From the UHGV virus genome UHGV-0086138: a stretch of 41,245 bases of DNA. The stretch is one strand, 5' to 3'. This stretch comes from a virus. How positions within the stretch are numbered: the stretch's first letter is position 1; each line of letters begins with the position of its first letter. The notes under the pieces are model-generated. The model searched no databases. It was not told where the DNA came from and was given only the letters and a program-made list of their open reading frames with translations. Shown piece by piece: positions 3,398 to 32,946 of the stretch. A program made the position numbers and the translations under genes.

Positions 3398-3550
3398 TCA
3401 GCCCTCCCATATCTCGTTATCGTTGGCCACATCGCGAGCTTCTTTGCTGACGAAAGCCCACTTAATGCCTTCCTGTAAGGTGCGGAACTTCCAGCTCATG
3501 AATCCGCATGCAGTAACGCAGTACCAACCGTTGATGATTTTCCACTGCAT
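3398..3550 (-). CDS. small protein (50 aa), first gene of leftward early operon; not in ORF track
   Basis: ATG at 3550 with GAGGT RBS, translation MQWKIINGWYCVTACGFMSWKFRTLQEGIKWAFVSKEARDVANDNEIWEG, TGA stop; sits directly downstream of a TTGACA promoter and operator. Confidence 0.45.
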   Translation of the reverse strand: MQWKIINGWYCVTACGFMSWKFRTLQEGIKWAFVSKEARDVANDNEIWEG

Positions 3551-3568
3551 AACTTGTTACCTCGGTCT

Positions 3569-3585
3569 GTTACCGTTGAGGTAAT
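3569..3585. promoter_or_regulatory. operator-like palindrome GTTACCGTTGAGGTAAT overlapping -10/+1 of leftward early promoter
   Basis: matches ATTACCy-N3-AGGTAAT family; lies between TTGACA promoter and the small ORF start. Confidence 0.55.
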
Positions 3586-3606
3586 AATTATGCGTATCTG
3601 GTTTGA

Positions 3607-3612
3607 TGTCAA
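3607..3612 (-). promoter_or_regulatory. -35 hexamer (TTGACA on minus strand) of leftward early promoter (PL-like)
   Basis: perfect TTGACA, 16-17 bp from AT-rich -10 (TAATTA), flanked by two operator palindromes. Confidence 0.5.
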
Positions 3613-3630
3613 TAGATATGAGTTAAAAAA

Positions 3631-3647
3631 ATTACCCATTAGGTAAT
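3631..3647. promoter_or_regulatory. operator-like palindrome ATTACCCATTAGGTAAT
   Basis: 17-bp inverted repeat upstream of leftward promoter. Confidence 0.6.
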
Positions 3648-3654
3648 CGAATAG

Positions 3655-3682
3655 GCAATAAAAAAGCCGCCAGAAGGCGGCT
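3655..3682 (-). terminator. rho-independent terminator downstream of repressor gene
   Basis: hairpin AGCCGCC-AGAA-GGCGGCT followed by T-run on minus strand. Confidence 0.6.
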
Positions 3683-3703
3683 TACTTACTGAAAAATATG
3701 ATT

Positions 3704-4288
3704 TTATTGTTTGTTTTTTTCGTTCTGGTTGATGACAAATTCAATGTAACTTTCGATCTTTGCTTTCTCGGTTTCGGGTAACAATGCGTAGCGCGAGCGA
3801 TCATAGTTGATGGTCGCAGGGTCGTGCGGGTGAATCAGTAATTCATAGCCGTGACGCCCGAATGCGGATGCAACATTCTCCAGGGTGGAAATGGAAACGC
3901 TGACCTCATTGTTTAACAGGCGGCTGATTGTCACCTGGGCGACGCCGGATGCGCGGTGTAGTTTTCCCTGCGTTGAAAGGTCGCGGCTTTCGCTCATCCA
4001 GCGTTCCAGGTTGTGAGCCGCCAGCTGACCTATATCACTCGGGCCGACAGGCTGAAAACCTTCCTGAGAAAGCGAGCGATCGATATCAAGCCAGTTACGG
4101 GGTTTATTGGCGGCAGCTTCAATTTTTCGCGCAACCTGGTCGCCGATAACCTTCTTGCCAAGAGCCCAGCGGTTTACCAGATTTGCCTGAGTTCCAAGTT
4201 TTTCTGCCATCCGCGTCTGAACACCATTGAATTCACGGTCGATCAAGTCGTTGAGATTTTGCCTGCGGACGTCCTGGATACTTTTCAT
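3704..4288 (-). CDS. prophage repressor with two XRE-type helix-turn-helix regions; no LexA-like S24 peptidase domain evident
   Basis: 194 aa; HTH-like segments near residues 25-45 and 110-135; divergent from Cro-like gene with three operator palindromes in between. Confidence 0.7.
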   Translation of the reverse strand: MKSIQDVRRQNLNDLIDREFNGVQTRMAEKLGTQANLVNRWALGKKVIGDQVARKIEAAANKPRNWLDIDRSLSQEGFQPVGPSDIGQLAAHNLERWMSESRDLSTQGKLHRASGVAQVTISRLLNNEVSVSISTLENVASAFGRHGYELLIHPHDPATINYDRSRYALLPETEKAKIESYIEFVINQNEKNKQ

Positions 4289-4342
4289 TTTCTGGAAAAT
4301 CGCCTCATATATGAATCAGTAGATGATTCAATTTAAAGCAAT

Positions 4343-4359
4343 ATTACCCAACAGGTAAA
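4343..4359. promoter_or_regulatory. operator O1 ATTACCCAACAGGTAAA (repressor/cro intergenic)
   Basis: first of three tandem palindromes between divergent repressor and cro genes. Confidence 0.65.
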
Positions 4360-4360
4360 T

Positions 4361-4377
4361 GCACCTCATAGGTAACT
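4361..4377. promoter_or_regulatory. operator O2 GCACCTCATAGGTAACT
   Basis: degenerate member of same palindrome family, 2 bp from O1. Confidence 0.5.
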
Positions 4378-4390
4378 ATCCTTGATTTTT

Positions 4391-4407
4391 GTTACCTTAT
4401 GGGTGAA
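4391..4407. promoter_or_regulatory. operator O3 GTTACCTTATGGGTGAA within spacer of cro promoter
   Basis: follows TTGATT -35 (4382-4387). Confidence 0.55.
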
Positions 4408-4430
4408 TATTTATTATCTGAAATAAATAT
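4407..4430. promoter_or_regulatory. AT-rich inverted repeat ATATTTATT-N6-AATAAATAT in cro leader
   Basis: 9-bp arms, between cro promoter and RBS. Confidence 0.4.
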
Positions 4431-4442
4431 CAGGCAATAGCT

Positions 4443-4673
4443 ATGAGCGATAACGGACATTTCGATTTCAAAAAGCACTGGCTTGCACTTACTCCGGATG
4501 AGCGTGAAGCCTTCGCACAGGAAGCCGGAACGACGAGTCACTATATCCAGACTCACTTAACAGGTAAGCGCAAAATGCCAGGTAAAGTATTGATGAATGG
4601 GCTTTTTAAAGCCTGTAAAACAAGACAATGGCTGCGCTTAAAAGCAGAACTGGCATACTTCTTCTACTCATGA
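4443..4673 (+). CDS. Cro-like HTH regulator
   Basis: 76 aa; HTH segment; divergent from repressor; followed by intrinsic terminator. Confidence 0.65.
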   Translation: MSDNGHFDFKKHWLALTPDEREAFAQEAGTTSHYIQTHLTGKRKMPGKVLMNGLFKACKTRQWLRLKAELAYFFYS

Positions 4674-4695
4674 TATCCAGCTACAACCCTCTGTA

Positions 4696-4718
4696 GACCG
4701 CCACCCGGCGGTCTTTTC
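4696..4718 (+). terminator. rho-independent terminator after cro
   Basis: hairpin GACCGCC-ACCC-GGCGGTC then TTTTC. Confidence 0.65.
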
Positions 4719-4727
4719 ATATCTATT

Positions 4728-4744
4728 CGTACCTCAAAGGTAAT
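4728..4744. promoter_or_regulatory. operator-like palindrome CGTACCTCAAAGGTAAT
   Basis: located after cro terminator and before TTGATC promoter-like hexamer. Confidence 0.55.
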
Positions 4745-4823
4745 AAAAAACCAAATCTGGTTGATCTTTTTTTTGTGTCAGCACAAAATGACCGTAATCC
4801 CAATACTAATAACAGGGCTTACC

Positions 4824-5024
4824 ATGGAAATCATTACACGTATTGATGCCGCAAAGCGCGGACTTAAACGCTACTACACCGGAAAAACATGTAAGCACGG
4901 ACATGACAGTGAACGCTGGGTTTACAACGGACACTGTGTTGAGTGCACCATGGAATCAAACCGTCGTATCAGGGCAGAGATTAAGCAGATCATGATTAAT
5001 TCCTCCCCACAACATTCAAGCTGA
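4824..5024 (+). CDS. small Cys/His-rich protein in CII-equivalent position
   Basis: ATG 4824 with AGGG RBS; C-x-H...H-C-x-x-C arrangement; function unknown. Confidence 0.45.
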   Translation: MEIITRIDAAKRGLKRYYTGKTCKHGHDSERWVYNGHCVECTMESNRRIRAEIKQIMINSSPQHSS

Positions 5025-5039
5025 TAGCGGAGATTAATC

Positions 5040-5903
5040 ATGAGCAGACATGCAACAGATTGGGCCTGGGAGACAGATCCAGGTAGCTCATCATTAAAGC
5101 TCATACTGCTCTCGATGGCTGACAGAGCCGATGAATATAACCTCTGCTACCCCAGCATAGAACGCCTCGTTAAAGACACTTGCCTGAATAAAAAAACCGT
5201 GCAGGCCGGGCTTATATCGCTCATGAAAATGGGGCTTATTTCAGATACCGGAGAGAGAAAGGGAGCGACAAAAAGAGTGCGGGTTTTCTCTCTTAATATA
5301 ACCAAAAACGGGAACATTAAAGGCAACCGAGAGGGGGGCAATGAACCCGAAAACGGTAATGTTACCGAAAACGGGAATATACCCAAAAACGGGATGTTGA
5401 ATGATCCCAAAAACGGGATGTTGAATGATCCCAAAAACGGGATGTTGAATGATCCCAAAAACGGGATGTTGAATGATCCCAAAAACGGGATCCAGAACCA
5501 GTCATATAACCAGTCATTTAACCAAGAGAGGGAGAGCAGGACAAAAAACGGGGATTCTGTGCATCATGACCCCGGCGCAAACAACGCCGTGATGAATAAC
5601 TTTGTTCCTCCTGGTGGGCCAGGGCAATTAGGCAAATTTGTCATGCATGAACAATGGCAGCCATCAGATGACTTTCTTCGGAAAAGCTCATTGCAGGGGA
5701 TCTACCTGGACAGTCTGCCAACGGCACAGGAACTTGCAGAGTTCAGAATTTACTGGATGGCTGAGGGTAAGGCATACCATCAGGCACAGTGGGAGCAGAA
5801 GCTGGCAAGGCGGCTGCAGATTAGCAGACAGAAGCAATCAACATTACCTGATAACAACGTTCCGCACTGGAACAGCCCTGAAGCATGGGAGGATTTCTTG
5901 TGA
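5040..5903 (+). CDS. replication initiator (lambda O-like role) with N-terminal HTH and internal iteron array
   Basis: 287 aa; N-terminal HTH-type domain; 4 perfect 24-bp direct repeats inside gene (encode PKNGMLND x4); followed by P-like gene. Confidence 0.75.
   Translation: MSRHATDWAWETDPGSSSLKLILLSMADRADEYNLCYPSIERLVKDTCLNKKTVQAGLISLMKMGLISDTGERKGATKRVRVFSLNITKNGNIKGNREGGNEPENGNVTENGNIPKNGMLNDPKNGMLNDPKNGMLNDPKNGMLNDPKNGIQNQSYNQSFNQERESRTKNGDSVHHDPGANNAVMNNFVPPGGPGQLGKFVMHEQWQPSDDFLRKSSLQGIYLDSLPTAQELAEFRIYWMAEGKAYHQAQWEQKLARRLQISRQKQSTLPDNNVPHWNSPEAWEDFL
5347..5491 (+). repeat. iteron-like direct repeats inside replication initiator gene (4 perfect 24-bp units CCCAAAAACGGGATGTTGAATGAT at 5382-5477, flanked by degenerate copies)
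   Basis: perfect tandem units read directly; analogous to ori iterons inside lambda O. Confidence 0.7.
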
Positions 5904-9696: not shown

Positions 9697-9939
9697 ATGT
9701 TCTCTCTGATTCAACGTGGTCAGATATACACCGATAGCGCTGGCTATCCAGTAAAAATCATTCGTAGTACTGATCACTCAGTATTCTTCAAGAGGATGGA
9801 TGGCTATCCTGGAAGAGTGTGCATCAGAAAATTCAATAATTTATTCGAACACATTGATCACAGAGAATATCACCAGATCCTGGCTGAAACAGAACAGGAG
9901 AACCATCTGAAAAAATTACGTGCCATGCAAAGGAGATAA
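9697..9939 (+). CDS. hypothetical protein
   Basis: 80-aa ORF. Confidence 0.45.
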   Translation: MFSLIQRGQIYTDSAGYPVKIIRSTDHSVFFKRMDGYPGRVCIRKFNNLFEHIDHREYHQILAETEQENHLKKLRAMQRR

Positions 9940-9974
9940 ACCGGTAAAGGTGTTCGCGATAAAGGTAAATATTG

Positions 9975-10313
9975 ATGGCTAAATCAGCAGCAGAGCGCAA
10001 AGCCGCTCAGAGAGCCAGACAAGCTGAATCCGGTGTACGTAAGCTGGAGATTGTGCTTGATGCTCAGGAAATTGAAATGCTGGAGCGGAACTGCGCCGCC
10101 CGGCGCCCTGGTCGAGATCCCTATGAAATGGCCGAGTACATCGCGCTGATGATCCGCCAGGATGATGCCCGGGTGCGCGGGCGTATAAAATCGATCAGCA
10201 GAAAACGTTGCGGTAAGTGCGGCGAGAGAGTTCCAGTTAATTCATGCCCGTGTAATGGTGACTCGCAATGCTGGGTGACTAAAGGCTGGCATGAAACGAA
10301 ATTAATAGTGTGA
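9975..10313 (+). CDS. hypothetical protein with Cys-rich C-terminus
   Basis: ATG 9975 after AAGGT RBS; stop TGA embedded in 14-bp palindrome. Confidence 0.5.
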   Translation: MAKSAAERKAAQRARQAESGVRKLEIVLDAQEIEMLERNCAARRPGRDPYEMAEYIALMIRQDDARVRGRIKSISRKRCGKCGERVPVNSCPCNGDSQCWVTKGWHETKLIV

Positions 10314-11028: not shown

Positions 11029-12500
11029 CAGATGCAGCGTTATCTCCTGAAGAGCAGTTGATCGAGGATATTGCAGGGTTCACTCACGATCCGCTTGGCT
11101 ATGCCCTCTATGCGTTCCCGTGGGGGGAAGAGGGGACTGAACTGGCACATGCTACCGGCCCACGTCAGTGGCAGGCCGATGCGTTCCGAGAGATACGTGA
11201 TCACCTGCAGAATCCCGAGACGCGCTATCAGCCGCTTATGCTGGCACGTGCTTCGGGCCACGGTATTGGTAAATCAGCATTCATCTCAATGTTGATCAAC
11301 TGGGGCATGTCCACTTGCGAGGATTGTAAGGTCGTGGTGACCGCCAACACCGACAACCAGCTACGAACGAAGACCTGGCCGGAAATTATCAAGTGGTCGA
11401 ACCTTGCTATCACGAAAGACTGGTTTACCTGTACCGCTACCGCGATGTACAGCAATGATCCTGGGCACGACAAGCGGTGGCGAGCTGACGCAATCCCCTG
11501 GTCTGAGCACAACACTGAGGCATTCGCCGGACTACACAACGAGCGCAAACGCATCATCGTGGTATTCGATGAAGCGTCGAACATTGCGGATCTGGTGTGG
11601 GAAGTTGCTGAGGGTGCGCTTACGGACGAAGACACTGAGATTATCTGGGTGGCGTTCGGAAACCCTACTCGTAACACCGGGCGTTTCCACGAATGTTTCC
11701 GCAAATATAAACACCGCTGGAAAACTGCGCAGATTGACAGCCGGACGGTGGAAGGCACTAACAAACAGCAGTTGCAGAAATGGGTTGATGACTACGGGGA
11801 AGATAGCGACTTCGTTAAAATCCGTGTGCGCGGCATATTCCCTGATGCATCTGAATTGCAGTTTATCCCTACCGGTCTTACTGATGAGGCAATGAAACGG
11901 GTGGTAACCGCTGCGCAGGTGGCGCATGCTCCGGTGATAATCGGCGTTGACCCGGCATACTCCGGCGTTGATGACGCTGTGATATACCTGCGGCAGGGGC
12001 TGCACAGTAAGGTGCTATGGACTGGTAACAAGACCACCGACGATCTGATTATGGCGAAGCGTATCGCTGACTTTGAAGACCAGTATCAGGCTGACGCGGT
12101 GTTCATCGACTTCGGTTACGGTACCGGTCTGAAGTCAATCGGTGATGGTTGGGGGCGCACATGGCAACTTGTTCCGTTCGGTGGCGCGTCTACTGACCCG
12201 CAGATGCTCAACAAGCGTGGGGAGATGTTCAACTCATGCAAGACATGGCTGAGGCTGGGCGGGATGCTGGATGACCAGGAAACAGCGGACGACCTGTCGG
12301 CGGCAGAGTATAAAGTTCGAGTGGACGGTAAAATCGTTATCGAACCGAAGGAAGATATCAAGGAGCGGCTTGGGCGTTCTCCTGGTAAAGGCGATGCGCT
12401 ACTGCTGACGTTTGCTTTCCCTGTGTCAAAGCGTCTGCGAATTCCCGGGCAGCAGAACCAGCAAGGCAAGGCCATCACAGATTACGATCCCTATGCTTAA
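11025..12500 (+). CDS. terminase large subunit
   Basis: 491 aa; ATPase-like N-terminal and nuclease-like C-terminal regions; position before portal. Confidence 0.85.
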   Translation: MTDAALSPEEQLIEDIAGFTHDPLGYALYAFPWGEEGTELAHATGPRQWQADAFREIRDHLQNPETRYQPLMLARASGHGIGKSAFISMLINWGMSTCEDCKVVVTANTDNQLRTKTWPEIIKWSNLAITKDWFTCTATAMYSNDPGHDKRWRADAIPWSEHNTEAFAGLHNERKRIIVVFDEASNIADLVWEVAEGALTDEDTEIIWVAFGNPTRNTGRFHECFRKYKHRWKTAQIDSRTVEGTNKQQLQKWVDDYGEDSDFVKIRVRGIFPDASELQFIPTGLTDEAMKRVVTAAQVAHAPVIIGVDPAYSGVDDAVIYLRQGLHSKVLWTGNKTTDDLIMAKRIADFEDQYQADAVFIDFGYGTGLKSIGDGWGRTWQLVPFGGASTDPQMLNKRGEMFNSCKTWLRLGGMLDDQETADDLSAAEYKVRVDGKIVIEPKEDIKERLGRSPGKGDALLLTFAFPVSKRLRIPGQQNQQGKAITDYDPYA

Positions 12501-12550
12501 TCCGCTAGTGGGGATAATGTCGTTGATATCCTCTGATGAGGATAAAACAA

Positions 12551-12573
12551 AGCCAGCTCATCGGCTGGCTGTT
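12551..12573. terminator. bidirectional terminator between terL and convergent minus-strand gene
   Basis: hairpin AGCCAGC-TCATCG-GCTGGCT flanked by A-run and T-run. Confidence 0.55.
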
Positions 12574-12587
12574 TGTGACATGTCACG
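12574..12587. repeat. 14-bp palindrome TGTGACATGTCACG (copy 2)
   Basis: identical 14-mer next to bidirectional terminator after terL. Confidence 0.8.
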
Positions 12588-12590
12588 GTG

Positions 12591-12947
12591 TTATTGCTCG
12601 CTTAACTTCTGCTTCAGCAAGTAACCTTCGAGCATCCAGATTTTGTTTACAGCATTCTGCCGGGCAATCTTCCGACCAATTTCTGCATCAAAATTTTCCG
12701 GACTTGCACAGGCACTCTCTCCGGTGACGGTGAAGCCATTCTTCAGTACCAATACGCAGAAAGTCAGGAGGTCTGTAGATTTATGCGCTGTCCATGAATC
12801 GCCAACGCCCATATTGGCAGCACGAATGCCGTCATAAGCAGTAAAGAAATGCTCTTCAAGAATGATGCTTTCGATATATTGAGGCGTAACTCGCGGAGCG
12901 GTTTTGCCTTTCTCAACGATTTCTTTTTCGATTTGCTGGTCGTTCAT
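12591..12947 (-). CDS. small phage protein, possibly Gp49-like family
   Basis: 118 aa on opposite strand to flanking structural genes; segment FCVLVLKNGFTVTGESACASPENFDAEIGRKIARQNA resembles Phage_gp49_66-type proteins (recollection only). Confidence 0.45.
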   Translation of the reverse strand: MNDQQIEKEIVEKGKTAPRVTPQYIESIILEEHFFTAYDGIRAANMGVGDSWTAHKSTDLLTFCVLVLKNGFTVTGESACASPENFDAEIGRKIARQNAVNKIWMLEGYLLKQKLSEQ

Positions 12948-13145
12948 AATCTCACCTTAAAAAAATGCCCGGCGAACCGGGCGAACTGGAAGCAATGAGT
13001 TATGCCTTCCGTGGCTGTACTGGTTTACAGCATGAAGTCATCGCAATGGCGTCCTGCTGTAAAAAGGGCGGTGATAGTCCTTCAAGGGAAACCATCACCG
13101 CCAAGCCCCTGGAACTTCTGGCATCACGGTCCTTAGGCGTGATTC

Positions 13146-13222
13146 TGGCGTGGCATGCAGGATTCGAACCTGCGACCAACCGCTTAGAAGGCGGTTGCTC
13201 TGTCCAACTGAGCTAATGCCAC
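13146..13222 (-). tRNA. tRNA-Arg (anticodon UCU)
   Basis: Cloverleaf read from reverse complement: 7-bp acceptor stem GTGGCAT/ATGCCAC, D-arm GCTC..GAGC, anticodon stem ACCGC/GCGGT with loop CUUCUAA, T-arm GCAGG-TTCGAAT-CCTGC, 3' CCA encoded. Confidence 0.85.
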
Positions 13223-13543
13223 AACGCTGAGAGCACTTAGCCTGTTAAGGCGCCACACTTTGTCGCGGCTCCATAAATGCTCTCATCGTTGTACCCTCGT
13301 CTCTTCCGAGGCGTCACACCGAATCGCCGGGATGGTGAATCCCCGTGCGCGGAATAAAACCGCTCGACTTGCACATTCCGGCTACCTGGTTCGTTTGCCC
13401 GAGCAAGGGAGGGTGCCCCTTAAACGTATCCAGACCGCTATCGGCGCATGTGCCATACGCCGTACTGCTCAAAATAAAAGCTCACTCCACCTGTTCAATT
13501 TAACGACAAGCCAGTCAGGTTAATAACCGGAATGAACCATTTG

Positions 13544-13560
13544 CTTACCTGAAAGGTAAT
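13544..13560. promoter_or_regulatory. operator-like palindrome CTTACCTGAAAGGTAAT upstream of structural operon
   Basis: same motif family, about 90 bp upstream of 13650. Confidence 0.55.
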
Positions 13561-13649
13561 AATTCGTGCGTTAAATGTCAACTGTCTACGATAAATAAAT
13601 CATATGTGGTTAAATTGGTAATAATTTAATTGCGTACGGAGTCATTGAT

Positions 13650-13856
13650 ATGTGCATGGGTAGCTCACCGTCAGTGCCTGCAACACCAGAAGTTCAGGCA
13701 GCACCACAGGAGCAGGATGCCGCCGTTGTTGATGCCCGCGACGAAGAAACTCGTCGCCGTCGCGCTGCTGCTGGTCGTAGTTCTACGCTGCTTACCGGTT
13801 CTCAGGGTGACACATCAACCGCTAATACCAGCGGTAAAACGCTGCTTGGTCAGTAA
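13650..13856 (+). CDS. small low-complexity protein upstream of portal
   Basis: 68 aa; RBS context CGGAGTCATTGATATG nearly identical to that of portal gene. Confidence 0.4.
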   Translation: MCMGSSPSVPATPEVQAAPQEQDAAVVDARDEETRRRRAAAGRSSTLLTGSQGDTSTANTSGKTLLGQ

Positions 13857-13870
13857 CCGGAGTCATTGAA

Positions 13871-15550
13871 ATGGCGGAAACAACTAAAGAGCGATTGAAC
13901 AAACAGTTCGCACAACTTGAAAGCGAGCGTCAGTCGTTCGAGCCGCACTGGCGCGAGTTGAGTGATTACATCAACCCGCGTGGTTCCCGCTTTCTGACTT
14001 CTGAGGTCAACCGTAACGATCGACGCAATACACGCATTATTGATTCGACCGGGACTATGGCGGCGCGCACTCTCGCCAGCGGCATGATGTCAGGCATCAC
14101 AAGCCCCGCGCGTCCGTGGTTTCGCCTGGCTACGCCAGATCCTGAAATGATGGATTATGGCCCTGTTAAGTTGTGGCTTGAGGCGGTGCAGAACCGCATG
14201 AACGATATGTTCAATAAGTCGAATCTCTATCAGTCGCTGCCGCAGTTATACGGAAGCCTCGGCACATACAGCACTGGTGCAATGGCAGTGCTGGAGGATG
14301 ACGAGGACATCATTCGCACAATGCCATTCCCGATAGGCAGTTACTACCTGGCTAACTCACCTCGTGGCAGTGTGGACACCTGTTTTCGCAAGTTCTCTAT
14401 GACTGTTCGTCAGCTTGTTCAGGAGTTCGGGCTAAATAACGTCAGCGAATCCGTAAAAAGCATGTGGGAAAGCGGAACCTACGAGAAGTGGATTGAAGTG
14501 ATGCATTCGGTTTACCCGAACATTGACCGCGATACATCGAAGCTGGATAGCAAGAACAAGCCATTCAAATCGGTTTATTACGAGGTTGGTGGCGATAACG
14601 ACAAGTTGTTGCGTGAGTCCGGATTCGATGAGTTTCCAATTATGGCTCCGCGCTGGGAAGTTAACGGCGAAGATGTTTATGGATCATCATGCCCGGGTAT
14701 GCTGGCGCTTGGACCTGTTAAGGCATTGCAGCTTCTCCAGAAGCGCAAGTCGCAGTTGATTGATAAAGCCACCAATCCGCCGATGGTTGCTCCGACTTCC
14801 CTCAAGAATCAGCGCGCCTCTCTTCTTCCTGGCGACATCACGTATATCGATCAGATTACTGGTCAGGATGGTTTCAGGCCTGCTTATCTGGTTAACCCCA
14901 GTACAGCAGATCTGGTAGCAGACATTCAGGACACCCGCCAAATCATTAACAGCGCCTACTTTGTCGATCTGTTCATGATGTTGCAGAACATCAATACCCG
15001 CTCGATGCCTGTTGAAGCAGTGATCGAAATGAAAGAAGAAAAGCTTCTGATGTTGGGGCCGGTTCTGGAGCGTCTGAACGACGAATGTCTTAACCCTCTC
15101 ATTGACCGCGCTTTCTCGATGATGGTGCGTAAAAACATGCTGCCGCCACCGCCTGACGCGATGGAAGGTATGCCCCTGAAGGTCGAATACATTTCCGTCA
15201 TGGCTCAGGCGCAGAAGTCTATCGGCCTGTCCAGTCTGGCGTCTACGGTCAACTTCATTGGTCAACTTGCGCAAGCGAAACCAGAAGCTCTCGACAAACT
15301 CAACGTTGATCAGGCGATCGATGCATTCGCTGATATGTCCGGAGTGTCTCCAACCGTCATTGTTCCGCAGGAACAGGTTGAGCAGGCTCGCCAGCAACGG
15401 GCACAGCAACAACAGCAGCAACAAATGATGGCGATGGGGATGGCGGCGGCACAGGGGGCCAAGACGCTAAGCGAAGCTAAAACTTCGGATCCGAGTGTGT
15501 TGTCAGCTATGGCGAATGCAGTTAGTGGTCAGGGTGGGCAATCACAATGA
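13871..15550 (+). CDS. portal (head-to-tail connector) protein, podovirus type
   Basis: 559 aa, size and position after terminase; Q-rich C-terminus. Confidence 0.8.
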   Translation: MAETTKERLNKQFAQLESERQSFEPHWRELSDYINPRGSRFLTSEVNRNDRRNTRIIDSTGTMAARTLASGMMSGITSPARPWFRLATPDPEMMDYGPVKLWLEAVQNRMNDMFNKSNLYQSLPQLYGSLGTYSTGAMAVLEDDEDIIRTMPFPIGSYYLANSPRGSVDTCFRKFSMTVRQLVQEFGLNNVSESVKSMWESGTYEKWIEVMHSVYPNIDRDTSKLDSKNKPFKSVYYEVGGDNDKLLRESGFDEFPIMAPRWEVNGEDVYGSSCPGMLALGPVKALQLLQKRKSQLIDKATNPPMVAPTSLKNQRASLLPGDITYIDQITGQDGFRPAYLVNPSTADLVADIQDTRQIINSAYFVDLFMMLQNINTRSMPVEAVIEMKEEKLLMLGPVLERLNDECLNPLIDRAFSMMVRKNMLPPPPDAMEGMPLKVEYISVMAQAQKSIGLSSLASTVNFIGQLAQAKPEALDKLNVDQAIDAFADMSGVSPTVIVPQEQVEQARQQRAQQQQQQQMMAMGMAAAQGAKTLSEAKTSDPSVLSAMANAVSGQGGQSQ

Positions 15551-31819: not shown

Positions 31820-31975
31820 GGTGGTTATCTCCACTTAGTGATTTTAATCACCACCGCAACGCCAATTACTGGTGGTGAACTGGACAAGGTTGGCGTACCG
31901 GCCTAAGTGGTACCGGCGTCCTTTCGGACCCCTGCCCAGCCCACCATAATTCGGATATAGCTGTGCTTAACGCAT

Positions 31976-31997
31976 AAAAAAACCACGTCTGGCGTGG
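31976..31997 (-). terminator. intrinsic terminator inside antirepressor leader (minus strand)
   Basis: hairpin CCACG-CCAGA-CGTGG followed by T7 on minus strand, about 160 bp upstream of ant start. Confidence 0.5.
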
Positions 31998-32087
31998 TAT
32001 GCGCCACTTAGTAACTCGGGACGCCAATCCCGGCACTGGATTTTGCCAGTACCCGATTACTATGGCACAAGAGGAGTGCGATGTAAA

Positions 32088-32104
32088 TTTACCGCAAAGG
32101 TAAT
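32088..32104. promoter_or_regulatory. operator-like palindrome TTTACCGCAAAGGTAAT at antirepressor promoter
   Basis: overlaps -10/+1 of a putative minus-strand promoter (TTGATT...TTATCAT). Confidence 0.55.
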
Positions 32105-32217: not shown

Positions 32218-32946
32218 ATGGAAGTTTTCTGGATAGTTGTTGGTGTGGTTGCGGTGATTATTTATGTTATCAACCAGAACAAGACTAAGATCTCTGATCG
32301 TACGGTCGTTAATCATAACAAAACGATAAAGACCGAAGATGGGGAGATAACGATTAATCGTACACAGGTGATAGAACACACCTCTACTCAGTTTCAAAAA
32401 ACTGGAGGTAATGCGCCTAATATTTCCGCACCTCCTGCTTATGATAGTGCGGTAATCCAGACATATTATAAACAGCAGGAGTTAGCAAAAGAGAGGCAAC
32501 TGATTCAGCCAAAGCCGTTTACAGCTGAGCTTCCACCTGGAGTGTCAACGCGTCCGGCATATCATGGAAGATTCCCTGGTGATGACATATCGTCTCAGTC
32601 ATCTAAAAAAGCACCTCAGGCAGTATCAGAGCCAGCAAGAATACCTTCTGTATCGCCGCCAAAAGAAGAATCAGCTAACAGAGTTTCAAGTGGTAGCAAG
32701 CAGTGCTTGCGATGCAGAATAAACCTACCATATGAAAAATTCAGGAAATCGTCAAAAAATCCAGATGGATTGACTAAGTGGTGTGCAAGGTGTCTCGATG
32801 GCCCAAAGAATACACGCCATATGAAGTGGTGCCCAATTTGTAATGTCCGCAGAAAACGAACCAGCTTTTACCCTAATAATCAAAATGCGGACGGATTAAT
32901 GGCATGGTGCAAAACGTGCTGGGATGAGCACAAAGCGAAACGATAG
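32218..32946 (+). CDS. membrane-anchored protein with duplicated C-terminal CxxC zinc-ribbon-like motifs
   Basis: N-terminal TM helix; two repeats of C-x2-C ... DGL-x-(K/A)WC-x(2)-C; GAGGA RBS. Confidence 0.5.
   Translation: MEVFWIVVGVVAVIIYVINQNKTKISDRTVVNHNKTIKTEDGEITINRTQVIEHTSTQFQKTGGNAPNISAPPAYDSAVIQTYYKQQELAKERQLIQPKPFTAELPPGVSTRPAYHGRFPGDDISSQSSKKAPQAVSEPARIPSVSPPKEESANRVSSGSKQCLRCRINLPYEKFRKSSKNPDGLTKWCARCLDGPKNTRHMKWCPICNVRRKRTSFYPNNQNADGLMAWCKTCWDEHKAKR

Follow-up and report, generated by a model that had tools for sequence, protein, structure and literature searches.

What is encoded by the opposite-strand DNA that separates the terminase gene from the portal gene in UHGV virus genome UHGV-0086138? 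The whole stretch analysed, 41,245 nucleotides (nt) in length and hereafter called the window, is an Escherichia coli prophage of the phiV10/epsilon15 type (genus Uetakevirus). The original prediction described a reverse-oriented accessory module between the terminase gene, which ends at 12500, and the portal gene, which starts at 13871. The module was said to consist of a Gp49-like small gene, a tRNA-Arg(UCU) gene, about 320 nt of non-coding sequence with GC-rich inverted repeats, and an operator palindrome, and all of these items were found in place. It was also found that the minus strand from 13463 to 13223 encodes a structured RNA of about 240 nt, which comprises helices P1 to P6, one pseudoknot, and near-invariant junctions such as CCGGAAUGUGCAAG. 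This RNA almost certainly represents a genuine, conserved, structured family, whose members are 165-240 nt in size. The earlier suggestion that the non-coding stretch might give rise to a small RNA was right in that the stretch encodes an RNA, but the product is neither a small RNA nor a run of incidental GC-rich repeats; it belongs to a covarying, pseudoknotted family.

What does this RNA do? By analogy, it may be a cis-acting processive antiterminator that works like the put elements of phage HK022, a reading that I favour at a little under even confidence. The evidence for the RNA itself is presented first, and this reading is then weighed against the alternatives as the relevant data appear.

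Covariation of the RNA Family

In an alignment of the window with phage phiV10, Salmonella phage SPN9TCW, and a Klebsiella phage, invariant blocks lie between indel-rich variable segments, and compensatory changes are visible. A MAFFT alignment of 47 representatives (A3) was then combined with a structure written by hand (P1, P2a/b, P4, the pseudoknot, and P5). In A3, 94.8% of the cells are paired, and 15 of the 29 pairs change on both sides. The covariation value was 0.306, compared with 0.134 in column shuffles (none of 500 reached 0.306) and with at most 0.075 when the partners were slid by 1-3 columns. On a model-based alignment of 68 distinct sequences, 95.7% of the cells are paired and the covariation is 0.322 versus 0.145 in shuffles, although this alignment was fitted to the model and is therefore biased towards the structure. 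Folding of the single sequence, which the original prediction had recommended, gave a result only modestly better than shuffles (z = -2.9). The covariation lies well beyond the controls.

G.U pairs account for 296 of the 1902 paired cells (15%), and the complementary strand would pair in only 80%. Thus, the RNA is read from the minus strand of the window, as are the features described below unless noted otherwise. A covariance model of the family (R1), which can serve for annotation, gives 111-175 bits for every intact full-length copy, including those of the Stenotrophomonas phage and Klebsiella phage SopranoGao. A copy cut by a contig end scores 113.4 bits, and the deleted remnant in epsilon15 scores 36 bits.

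The stretch from 13223 to 13540 holds just short, overlapping, non-conserved open reading frames (ORFs), as had been expected from the original prediction. Protein coding was rejected: the overlapping short ORFs persist in near-identical copies only, the lengths of the variable segments are not multiples of three, and the compensation is at the RNA level. The G+C content is 53.5% for 13223-13540 and 59% for the RNA core, compared with 48.8% for the entire window.

Architecture of the RNA

The RNA starts with helix P1 (13442..13462), a 9-bp hairpin of the form CGGCGUAUG-GCA-CAUGCGCCG. One of its pairs is split between G-C (31 sequences) and A-U (35 sequences), and the divergent members L250 and L265 have CGCUG/CAGCG instead, which adds further covariation. 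P2 (13381..13438) is a long irregular stem, GCGGUCUGG ... CCAGGUAGC, with a variable apex and with covariation in its helices: two pairs alternate between C-G and U-A, and the inner helix has G-C, A-U, C-G, and U-A. The 3′ strand of P2 and the following junction form the near-invariant segment GGUAGCCGGAAUGUGCAAG (13368..13386), which has no more than one change in the copies that BLAST found independently of it. The hairpin P3 (13345..13368) differs in length and sequence among lineages and is handled as an insertion region in R1.

P4 (13329..13343) is the hairpin GGGA-UUCACCA-UCCC, three of whose four pairs covary (A-U/U-G/C-G, C-G/G-C, and A-U/G-U/G-C). Its loop sequence CACC (13337-13334) pairs with GGUG (13320-13317) to form the pseudoknot (13317..13337), which is likewise supported by covariation: at the variable pair, 67 sequences have C-G and 8 have A-U, no discordant case occurs, and 98.9% of the cells are paired. 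In the covarying hairpin P5 (13295..13311), CCUCG-GAAGAGA-CGAGG, four of the five pairs covary, for example CCUCG/CGAGG, GCCGG/CCGGC, and CCUGG/CCAGG. Finally, the P6 domain (13223..13290), identified by folding and covariation, has a closing helix AACG.UGAGAGCA ... UGCUCUCA.CGUU around two small hairpins. In the window, P6 folds with -31.3 kcal/mol (z = -5.3) and ends flush with base 1 of the tRNA. The strands of the closing helix are separated by 53-190 nt depending on the lineage, and they covary as GAGAGCA/TGCTCTC, AAGAGCA/TGCTCTT, GAGCGCA/TGCGCTC, and AGAGAGT/ACTCTCT. When 7-bp closing helices were searched for generically, shuffled controls scored equally often, which made this search uninformative; for P6, only the specific covarying pairs are relied upon.

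Two IMG/VR loci have double variants at invariant positions. L249 has AGCGG changed to AGCAG together with AAUGUG changed to AAUAUG, and L246 has AGCGG changed to AGUGG together with GCCGG changed to GCAGG. Such paired changes might be due to non-canonical tertiary contacts that the P1/P2 linker makes with the invariant junction.

Is the RNA a sensing leader? A riboswitch-like or protein-bound RNA might refold in response to a metabolite, an ion, or a protein and thereby gate the transcription or stability of an early operon. The size, the pseudoknot, and the invariant unpaired nucleotides resemble those of aptamer domains, the element has a 5′ leader position, and RNAalifold proposed a long-range GCACAU/AUGUGC helix that competes with P1. 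However, this alternative helix has zero covariation and is broken by two single variants. Furthermore, no conserved expression platform was found, since P6 with a tRNA, the ban gene, or unrelated sequence follows depending on the lineage, and no Rfam riboswitch matches at E values up to 10. A sensing leader is thus quite unlikely.

Distribution and Genome Contexts

A sensitive blastn search with 13223-13545 found the element in 86 GenBank phage records. Uetakevirus phages have it in the same terminase-portal gap, where it is often joined to tRNA-Arg. The SfV/cdtI-like lambdoid carriers include Stx2c-converting phages, mEp460, 2H10, and Ayreon, while the P1-like carriers are P1, P7, D6, SJ46, and RCS47; Klebsiella phage SopranoGao and one Stenotrophomonas phage were also found. 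A 1.16-kb query covering the arrangement in the window matches E. coli SW070919 with 100% identity and phage phiV10 with 97.6% identity, and at least 80% of this arrangement is present in 223 complete E. coli genomes.

An exact 19-mer of the most conserved block occurs in at least 120 IMG/VR loci (47 clusters when grouped at 93% identity) and in 24 loci of species-representative genomes, nearly all of them Enterobacterales. A scan anchored on the 3′ domain gave a largely overlapping set and 54 new loci, of which 39 have the exact 19-mer, 13 have an altered one (10 with a single change), and 2 are truncated. The two scans combined yield more than 170 IMG/VR loci. In three divergent loci (L250, L265, and L296), GGUAGCC is changed and CCGGAAUGUGCAAG is kept. 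Two contigs from metagenome assemblies, labelled Oscillospiraceae and Bacillota (L146 and L158), also carry the element, with 172.5 bits for L158; they are probably misbinned enterobacterial phage DNA rather than evidence of a true Firmicutes host.

For the analysis of contexts, a set of 128 loci was used, which consists of the window, its close phage and E. coli relatives, and the 120 IMG/VR loci from the 19-mer scan. In 61 of them, the element is preceded on its own strand by a cI-like repressor gene (HTH and S24 peptidase), the end of which is about 150 nt away. In phage cdtI, the order is the cI stop codon, an intrinsic terminator, a strong promoter (TTGACA-N16-CATAAT) with operator-like repeats, and then the element about 45 nt past the predicted start. 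Thus, the element is the leader of the early leftward promoter (PL) in this phage. The placement in the Stenotrophomonas phage and in mEp390 is the same as in cdtI. In phage P1, the element is located in the C1-controlled ban operon between trnI and ban, 10 nt past trnI. What these three types of context have in common is that the element resides in an early operon under repressor control and precedes coding genes on the same strand, with the promoters being predicted; the SopranoGao copy, which lies after the lysis genes near the genome end, stands outside this statement.

The P1 ban operon also has an annotated dicF-like region (phage P1 68791-68892; L005 269-370) and two further tRNAs upstream. 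As the element shares the operon with these, the ban operon is unusually rich in non-coding RNA.

Each locus normally has one copy. The locus L025 has two (3994-4157 and 4801-4962, minus strand), about 650 nt apart, with a gene inserted between them on the opposite strand (4269-4769). Just past the downstream copy, the opposite strand has a further ORF (3457-3948), and the whole block is located between PL and the PL operon. It looks as if the element had been duplicated on insertion of the cassette.

Association with tRNA Genes

Among the 128 loci, 30 have tRNA-Arg(UCU) directly downstream of the element, 17 have tRNA-Ile(CAU) 8-10 nt upstream (P1 type), and 81 have no tRNA nearby. A cdtI-type copy (L006 2735-2745, compared with 13238-13219 of the window) ends with ...AGUGCUCUCAGCGUUGUGG and retains the first four bases of tRNA-Arg. 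This indicates recombination at the RNA/tRNA junction between lambdoid and Uetakevirus phages.

These numbers bear on the minimal explanation that the stretch is simply the promoter and leader of a tRNA gene and that its inverted repeats are functionless. The stretch does lie between a promoter and the tRNA, and its single-sequence fold is modestly above shuffles. Nevertheless, the element occurs without any tRNA in the 81 loci mentioned above, has been conserved between phages of E. coli and a phage of Stenotrophomonas, and shows covariation well above the controls, so that hardly any credence can be given to this explanation.

Could the RNA instead be excised from the early transcript, by RNase P at the 5′ end of tRNA-Arg or by 3′ processing of tRNA-Ile in P1, and act in trans as a stable non-coding RNA? 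Such an RNA would bind a conserved host or phage component; it might be a modulator of the ribosome or RNA polymerase, a decoy for a host defence nuclease, or a protein sponge. The same-strand tRNA adjoins directly in 47 of the 128 copies, with P6 flush with tRNA base 1 and with P1-type copies starting 8-10 nt after trnI, and tRNA processing would therefore give the RNA defined ends. The near-invariant junctions and loops suggest a conserved binding partner, and a terminator-like hairpin (T1, described below) lies just past the tRNA, as it would for a free-standing RNA gene. That epsilon15 survives without the element is also what would be expected of an accessory or anti-defence function. On the other hand, the majority of the copies have no adjacent tRNA, no conserved partner gene is found nearby, and same-strand coding genes always follow. 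For many lambdoid copies, the first 2 kb or so downstream are free of terminators, and these copies are thus simply the 5′ ends of long mRNAs. On this balance, a trans-acting RNA seems rather unlikely.

Loss of the Element in epsilon15 and CPS-53

In epsilon15, a natural deletion has removed the tRNA together with two thirds of the RNA at its 3′ end (L007 2546-2652, compared with SPN9TCW L002), while the terminator T2 and the cargo gene (both described below) are retained. The deletion joins two 11-mer repeats of CCCTTGATGCT, one in the apex of P2 and the other in the loop of T1. A common UCCCUU motif is also found in the P2 apex and the T1 loop of other phages. The E. coli K-12 prophage CPS-53 has retained the downstream genes yfdP-yfdT and has lost the element; expression data from K-12 are therefore unusable for it.

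The epsilon15 record places an RNase III processing site over the RNA remnant. It was considered whether the RNA is a processing or stability element, possibly a self-cleaving ribozyme, that sets 5′ ends or protects downstream RNAs. Besides the RNase III annotation, the compact pseudoknotted core with invariant junction nucleotides and the proximity to tRNAs, which need processing, are in line with this. However, the RNA matches no Rfam family of self-cleaving ribozymes, no cleavage site is identifiable from the sequence, the tRNAs need no such element, and most copies are not beside a tRNA. This explanation is very unlikely.

A Predicted Repressor-Controlled Promoter and the 5′ Leader

Where does transcription of the RNA start? 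The original prediction suggested that the tRNA promoter might lie inside 13223-13540, but the predicted promoter lies further upstream. The predicted -35 hexamer is TTGACA (13581-13576), of which TTGAC is invariant in the alignment of the E. coli, Salmonella, and Klebsiella phages, and the predicted -10 hexamer is TACCTT (13558-13553), where ATTACCTTT is invariant in all four aligned phages. The 17-nt length of the spacer and the hexamers are kept across phages of three host genera, while the spacer sequence is variable. Transcription would start near 13546. A strict promoter scan found a sigma-70-like site within 150 nt upstream of the element in just 32 of 94 contexts, and the promoter claim is therefore based on individual loci.

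The -10 hexamer is inside a palindrome, TTACC-N5-GGTAA (TTACCTGAAAGGTAA; 13545..13559), which overlaps the predicted start as well. The earlier view of this palindrome as an operator is well supported: the window has 14 such sites, whereas 0.63 are expected from shuffles and none of 100 shuffles reaches 14, and the homologous site in the epsilon15 record is annotated as 'repressor, lysogeny', that is, as a repressor binding site. The 14 palindromes are at 3570, 3632, 4344, 4392, 4729, 6723, 6785, 10400, 10418, 13545, 31022, 32089, 32183, and 33303, and they are found ahead of many operons, those of the small terminase subunit and tailspike genes among them. Together, they make up a dispersed regulon of the repressor, which recalls the C1 operators of phage P1.

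Between the predicted start and P1 lies a 5′ leader of about 83 nt (13464..13546; 39% G+C), which is conserved among the Uetakevirus copies only and is outside R1. It holds one weak terminator-like hairpin (13530-13511).

Terminators and the Cargo Gene

Downstream of the tRNA, a trailer hairpin (13143-13123) is followed by T1 (13059..13102), which was found in the terminator scan as a 14-bp hairpin followed by CUUUUUA (-22.8 kcal/mol, z = -4.6). T1 is terminator-like, and its stem covaries between phages. The scan and folding then identified the intrinsic terminator T2 (12959..12982), GCCCGG-UUCG-CCGGGC followed by seven U residues. The end of T2 is only 12 nt from the ATG codon of the cargo gene (12947), and a Shine-Dalgarno sequence lies between them. 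Such a junction of a terminator and an ATG codon recurs before at least six unrelated cargo families in Uetakevirus-type loci. Finally, T3 (12541..12570; -12.1 kcal/mol) closes the unit and faces the end of the terminase gene; the phiV10 record annotates a terminator here.

The cargo gene (12591..12947) is the small gene that had been called Gp49-like, and this assignment was borne out. Its 118-aa product belongs to the Phage_gp49_66 / Sf6-gp66 family (PF13876), with 118.6 bits against a cut-off of 27, an E value of 1.7e-34, and coverage of profile positions 1-82 of 82. RefSeq labels it 'Gp49 family protein', and it falls in PHROG 322, of unknown function; none of the cargo families at these loci has a known function. 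Some gene calls at this junction are doubtful. SPN9TCW_003 (L002 2085) and QBQ71862 (L003 1989) have N-terminal extensions of the cargo protein that are translated through T2, for example ...GHFFREEI-M....

On the other side of the module, a conserved 68-aa ORF starts at 13650 and precedes the portal gene (PF12236, 624 bits).

Possible Processive Antitermination

How can the cargo gene be expressed behind these terminators? Since T2 ends 12 nt before the ATG codon, there is no room for a separate cargo promoter, and cargo expression would therefore occur only via read-through of T1 and T2. According to the antitermination reading, the minus strand from 13581 to 12541 would be one repressor-controlled early transcription unit, which runs from the promoter/operator to T3 and has a swappable cargo gene. 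The folded nascent RNA would act in cis on the transcribing RNA polymerase and make it resistant to intrinsic and probably also Rho-dependent termination. The long untranslated RNA/tRNA stretch should be exposed to Rho. The modified polymerase would cross this stretch, T1, and T2 to reach the cargo gene. In lambdoids without N, its course would continue through the whole PL operon, and in phage P1, as far as ban. Cleavage by RNase P at the 5′ end of the tRNA may then free the RNA from the transcript, and the tRNA would be an optional passenger that supplies AGA decoding.

Several observations fit antitermination. In 35 of 99 distinct contexts, a same-strand ORF lies behind an intrinsic terminator located no more than 1.2 kb downstream of the element. 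No N gene is present in the PL operons of 2H10, cdtI, and mEp460, and none of the first ORF families downstream matches Pfam. According to a survey published in 2025 (PMC12315714), lambdoid phages without N may use RNA-mediated, put-like antitermination. The putL structure has a base of stem I, a CAUG sequence holding U28, and a junction between the stems (PMC9378689). Three blocks at the start of the element recur in the same order in HK022 and HK639 putL: ACGGCG, N7 (N11 in put), CAUGCGUCG, N1-2, and AGCG. These blocks, which comprise 19 nt altogether, correspond to the base of stem I, CAUG with U28, and the inter-stem junction of putL.

A number of points weigh against this reading. The 19 shared nucleotides were chosen post hoc, and a put-spaced pattern (first gap N8-13) gives about 7 chance matches in IMG/VR. 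R1 does not find HK022 putL or putR, or HK639 putL, at E values up to 10, and a profile HMM of 31 put sequences (nhmmer) gave E values of 3 or more against the 47 representatives, no better than shuffles. In size, the RNA exceeds put two- to threefold, and its pseudoknotted 3′ domain has no counterpart there. It is present as a single copy per phage, with none in the early rightward (PR) operon, and in phage P1 it is about 2.3 kb from the promoter. No intrinsic terminator is predicted within 1.2 kb downstream in 61 of the 99 contexts. Despite lacking two thirds of the RNA and the tRNA, epsilon15 still has T2 and the cargo gene, and its loss of most of the RNA means that the element is dispensable for the phage. 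The flush tRNA junctions equally suit a trans-acting RNA released by tRNA processing. Moreover, the transcription start, the read-through, and the binding to RNA polymerase are all inferred.

If antitermination is true, it would explain the expression of the early leftward operon in many lambdoid phages that lack N and the expression of cargo genes behind terminators in epsilon15/phiV10-type phages, and it would add a regulatory layer to the long-studied ban operon of P1. Experimentally, processive antitermination by RNA alone has been established in very few systems (HK022-type put and EAR). Whatever its function, a strongly covarying RNA of about 165-240 nt is present in P1, in Stx2c-converting phages, and in other prophages of E. 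coli, Salmonella, and Klebsiella, and it is short enough for direct testing.

The tRNA-Arg(UCU) Gene

The tRNA-Arg(UCU) (13146..13222), with an encoded CCA end, is genuine, as had been predicted. It is the sole tRNA that ARAGORN calls in the window, it scores 73.3 bits with the Rfam covariance model (RF00005; gathering score 29), and it has no non-canonical pairs. Its D arm, T arm, and anticodon loop are the same as in K-12 argU, and its two other stems (acceptor and anticodon) have compensated changes.

Does this tRNA supply AGA decoding, as the original prediction proposed? E. coli genes have on average about 2 AGA and 1 AGG per 1000 codons. In a crude ORF set of the window, AGA and AGG amount to 6.0 and 5.6 per 1000 codons, respectively. 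AGA is not used in the terminase, portal, and capsid genes and is concentrated in accessory and early genes, with AGA-rich stretches at 5040-5903, 9697-10313, 32218-32946, 33422-36496, and 36485-37423. The role is plausible, with weak support from this codon count. The tRNA is missing from phages Tyrion and epsilon15. It is an optional passenger of the RNA module, under the repressor-controlled predicted promoter.

A T-box-like sensing of tRNA was rejected for the element. The P5 loop GAAGAGA has AGA triplets, yet it is the same beside tRNA-Arg, beside tRNA-Ile, or without any tRNA.

Is the RNA Already Known?

The RNA family appears to be undescribed so far. No published description was found in a literature search that included exact sequence strings and that did not cover King et al. 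2011 on put-like RNAs. Most of the inspected GenBank and RefSeq records have nothing annotated over the element, and a few carry a doubtful 'hypothetical protein'. Examples over the RNA or tRNA on the opposite strand are mEp460_037 (L241 4943-5311) and PhiV10p04 (L001 1986-2237), while Tyrion gp54 (L008 2711-2872) is a doubtful same-strand call over the P6 region.

A search of 12450-13700 on both strands with Rfam 15 at E values up to 10 yielded only the tRNA as a passing match; all others have at most 26 bits, far below their thresholds. Known families, including GOLLD, ROOL, EAR, riboswitches, ribozymes, 6S, tmRNA, and RNase P RNA, were thus rejected for lack of an Rfam match. At gathering scores, the entire window has a tRNA, a C4 RNA, and an isrK RNA only. 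The latter two lie side by side at 31868-32052 (minus strand), where C4 antisense RNA scores 66 bits and the isrK-like RNA 63.5 bits, and are flanked by the operator palindromes at 32089 and 32183. The pair looks like a P1-style immI (c4/ant) immunity module in an epsilon15-like prophage.

Several other identities were rejected as well. A packaging RNA came to mind from the terminase-portal site, an idea that is contradicted by the homologues in PL leaders and in the ban operon of P1. A repeat, a transposon end, or another DNA-level element does not fit a single copy per locus, the absence of flanking repeats, and the proportion of G.U cells, which makes the structure strand-specific. The resemblances to RfaH ops and boxA are just 6 nt long (GGTAGC and UGCUCU) and were seen by eye. 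A retron or reverse-transcriptase template was rejected in that no such family was recognised among the recurrent neighbour families, part of which were profile-scanned. A 14-nt match to HK022 is due to chance, as it falls within the nun coding region. Membership in the put family was rejected by the model and HMM searches in both directions, which leaves only the short colinear identity. The HK639 element that is annotated from work on put-like RNAs is of the put type and is distinct from the RNA in the window.

Comparison with Known Systems

The tRNA in the window is of the same standard type as host argU and the tRNA-Arg(UCU) genes of other phages (argN/argO of Stx phages). It differs from them in being fused to a structured RNA, in having a repressor-controlled promoter, and in its terminase-portal site.

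GOLLD and ROOL are large ornate RNAs of phages and prophages, about 580-800 nt in length, which are often located near tRNA genes and occur in Firmicutes or in rumen and lake taxa. The present RNA resembles them as a large structured RNA of temperate phages that often has a same-strand tRNA neighbour. In contrast to GOLLD and ROOL, it is about 240 nt long, belongs to phages of Enterobacterales hosts, has a fixed leader position in early operons, and does not match their Rfam models. The EAR element of Bacillales is a conserved pseudoknotted RNA of more than 100 nt, which confers processive antitermination in or at the head of a long operon and has no expression platform. The present RNA shares the size above 100 nt, the conserved pseudoknotted structure, the operon setting, and the lack of an expression platform. 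It differs from EAR in the lack of an Rfam match, in the phylum, and in residing in phage early operons rather than in a chromosomal exopolysaccharide operon.

As for put (HK022 putL/putR and HK639), the similarities are the site just downstream of the predicted repressor-controlled promoter PL in lambdoid phages without N, the two consecutive stem-loops at the start, and the terminators and long untranslated stretches downstream. The put RNAs act by contacting the zinc-binding domain in the beta′ subunit of RNA polymerase. Unlike put, which is about 70 nt long, the present RNA has 165-240 nt and no detectable homology to put. It has an extra 3′ domain (P3, P4 with the pseudoknot, P5, and P6) and the near-invariant CCGGAAUGUGCAAG junction, is present in one copy per phage, and is also found outside the lambdoids (in P1 and Uetakevirus) and beside tRNAs. 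A broader proposal, possible but doubtful, is that this RNA represents a new class of large pseudoknotted phage RNA, unrelated to put, that reprograms a host machine without any phage protein, the likeliest target being the elongating RNA polymerase. In this view, phages of the P1, lambdoid, and epsilon15 types would have passed it among themselves as a portable 'early-operon opener', in some cases with a tRNA attached, and its short identity with stem I of put would be due to convergence on one and the same polymerase surface.

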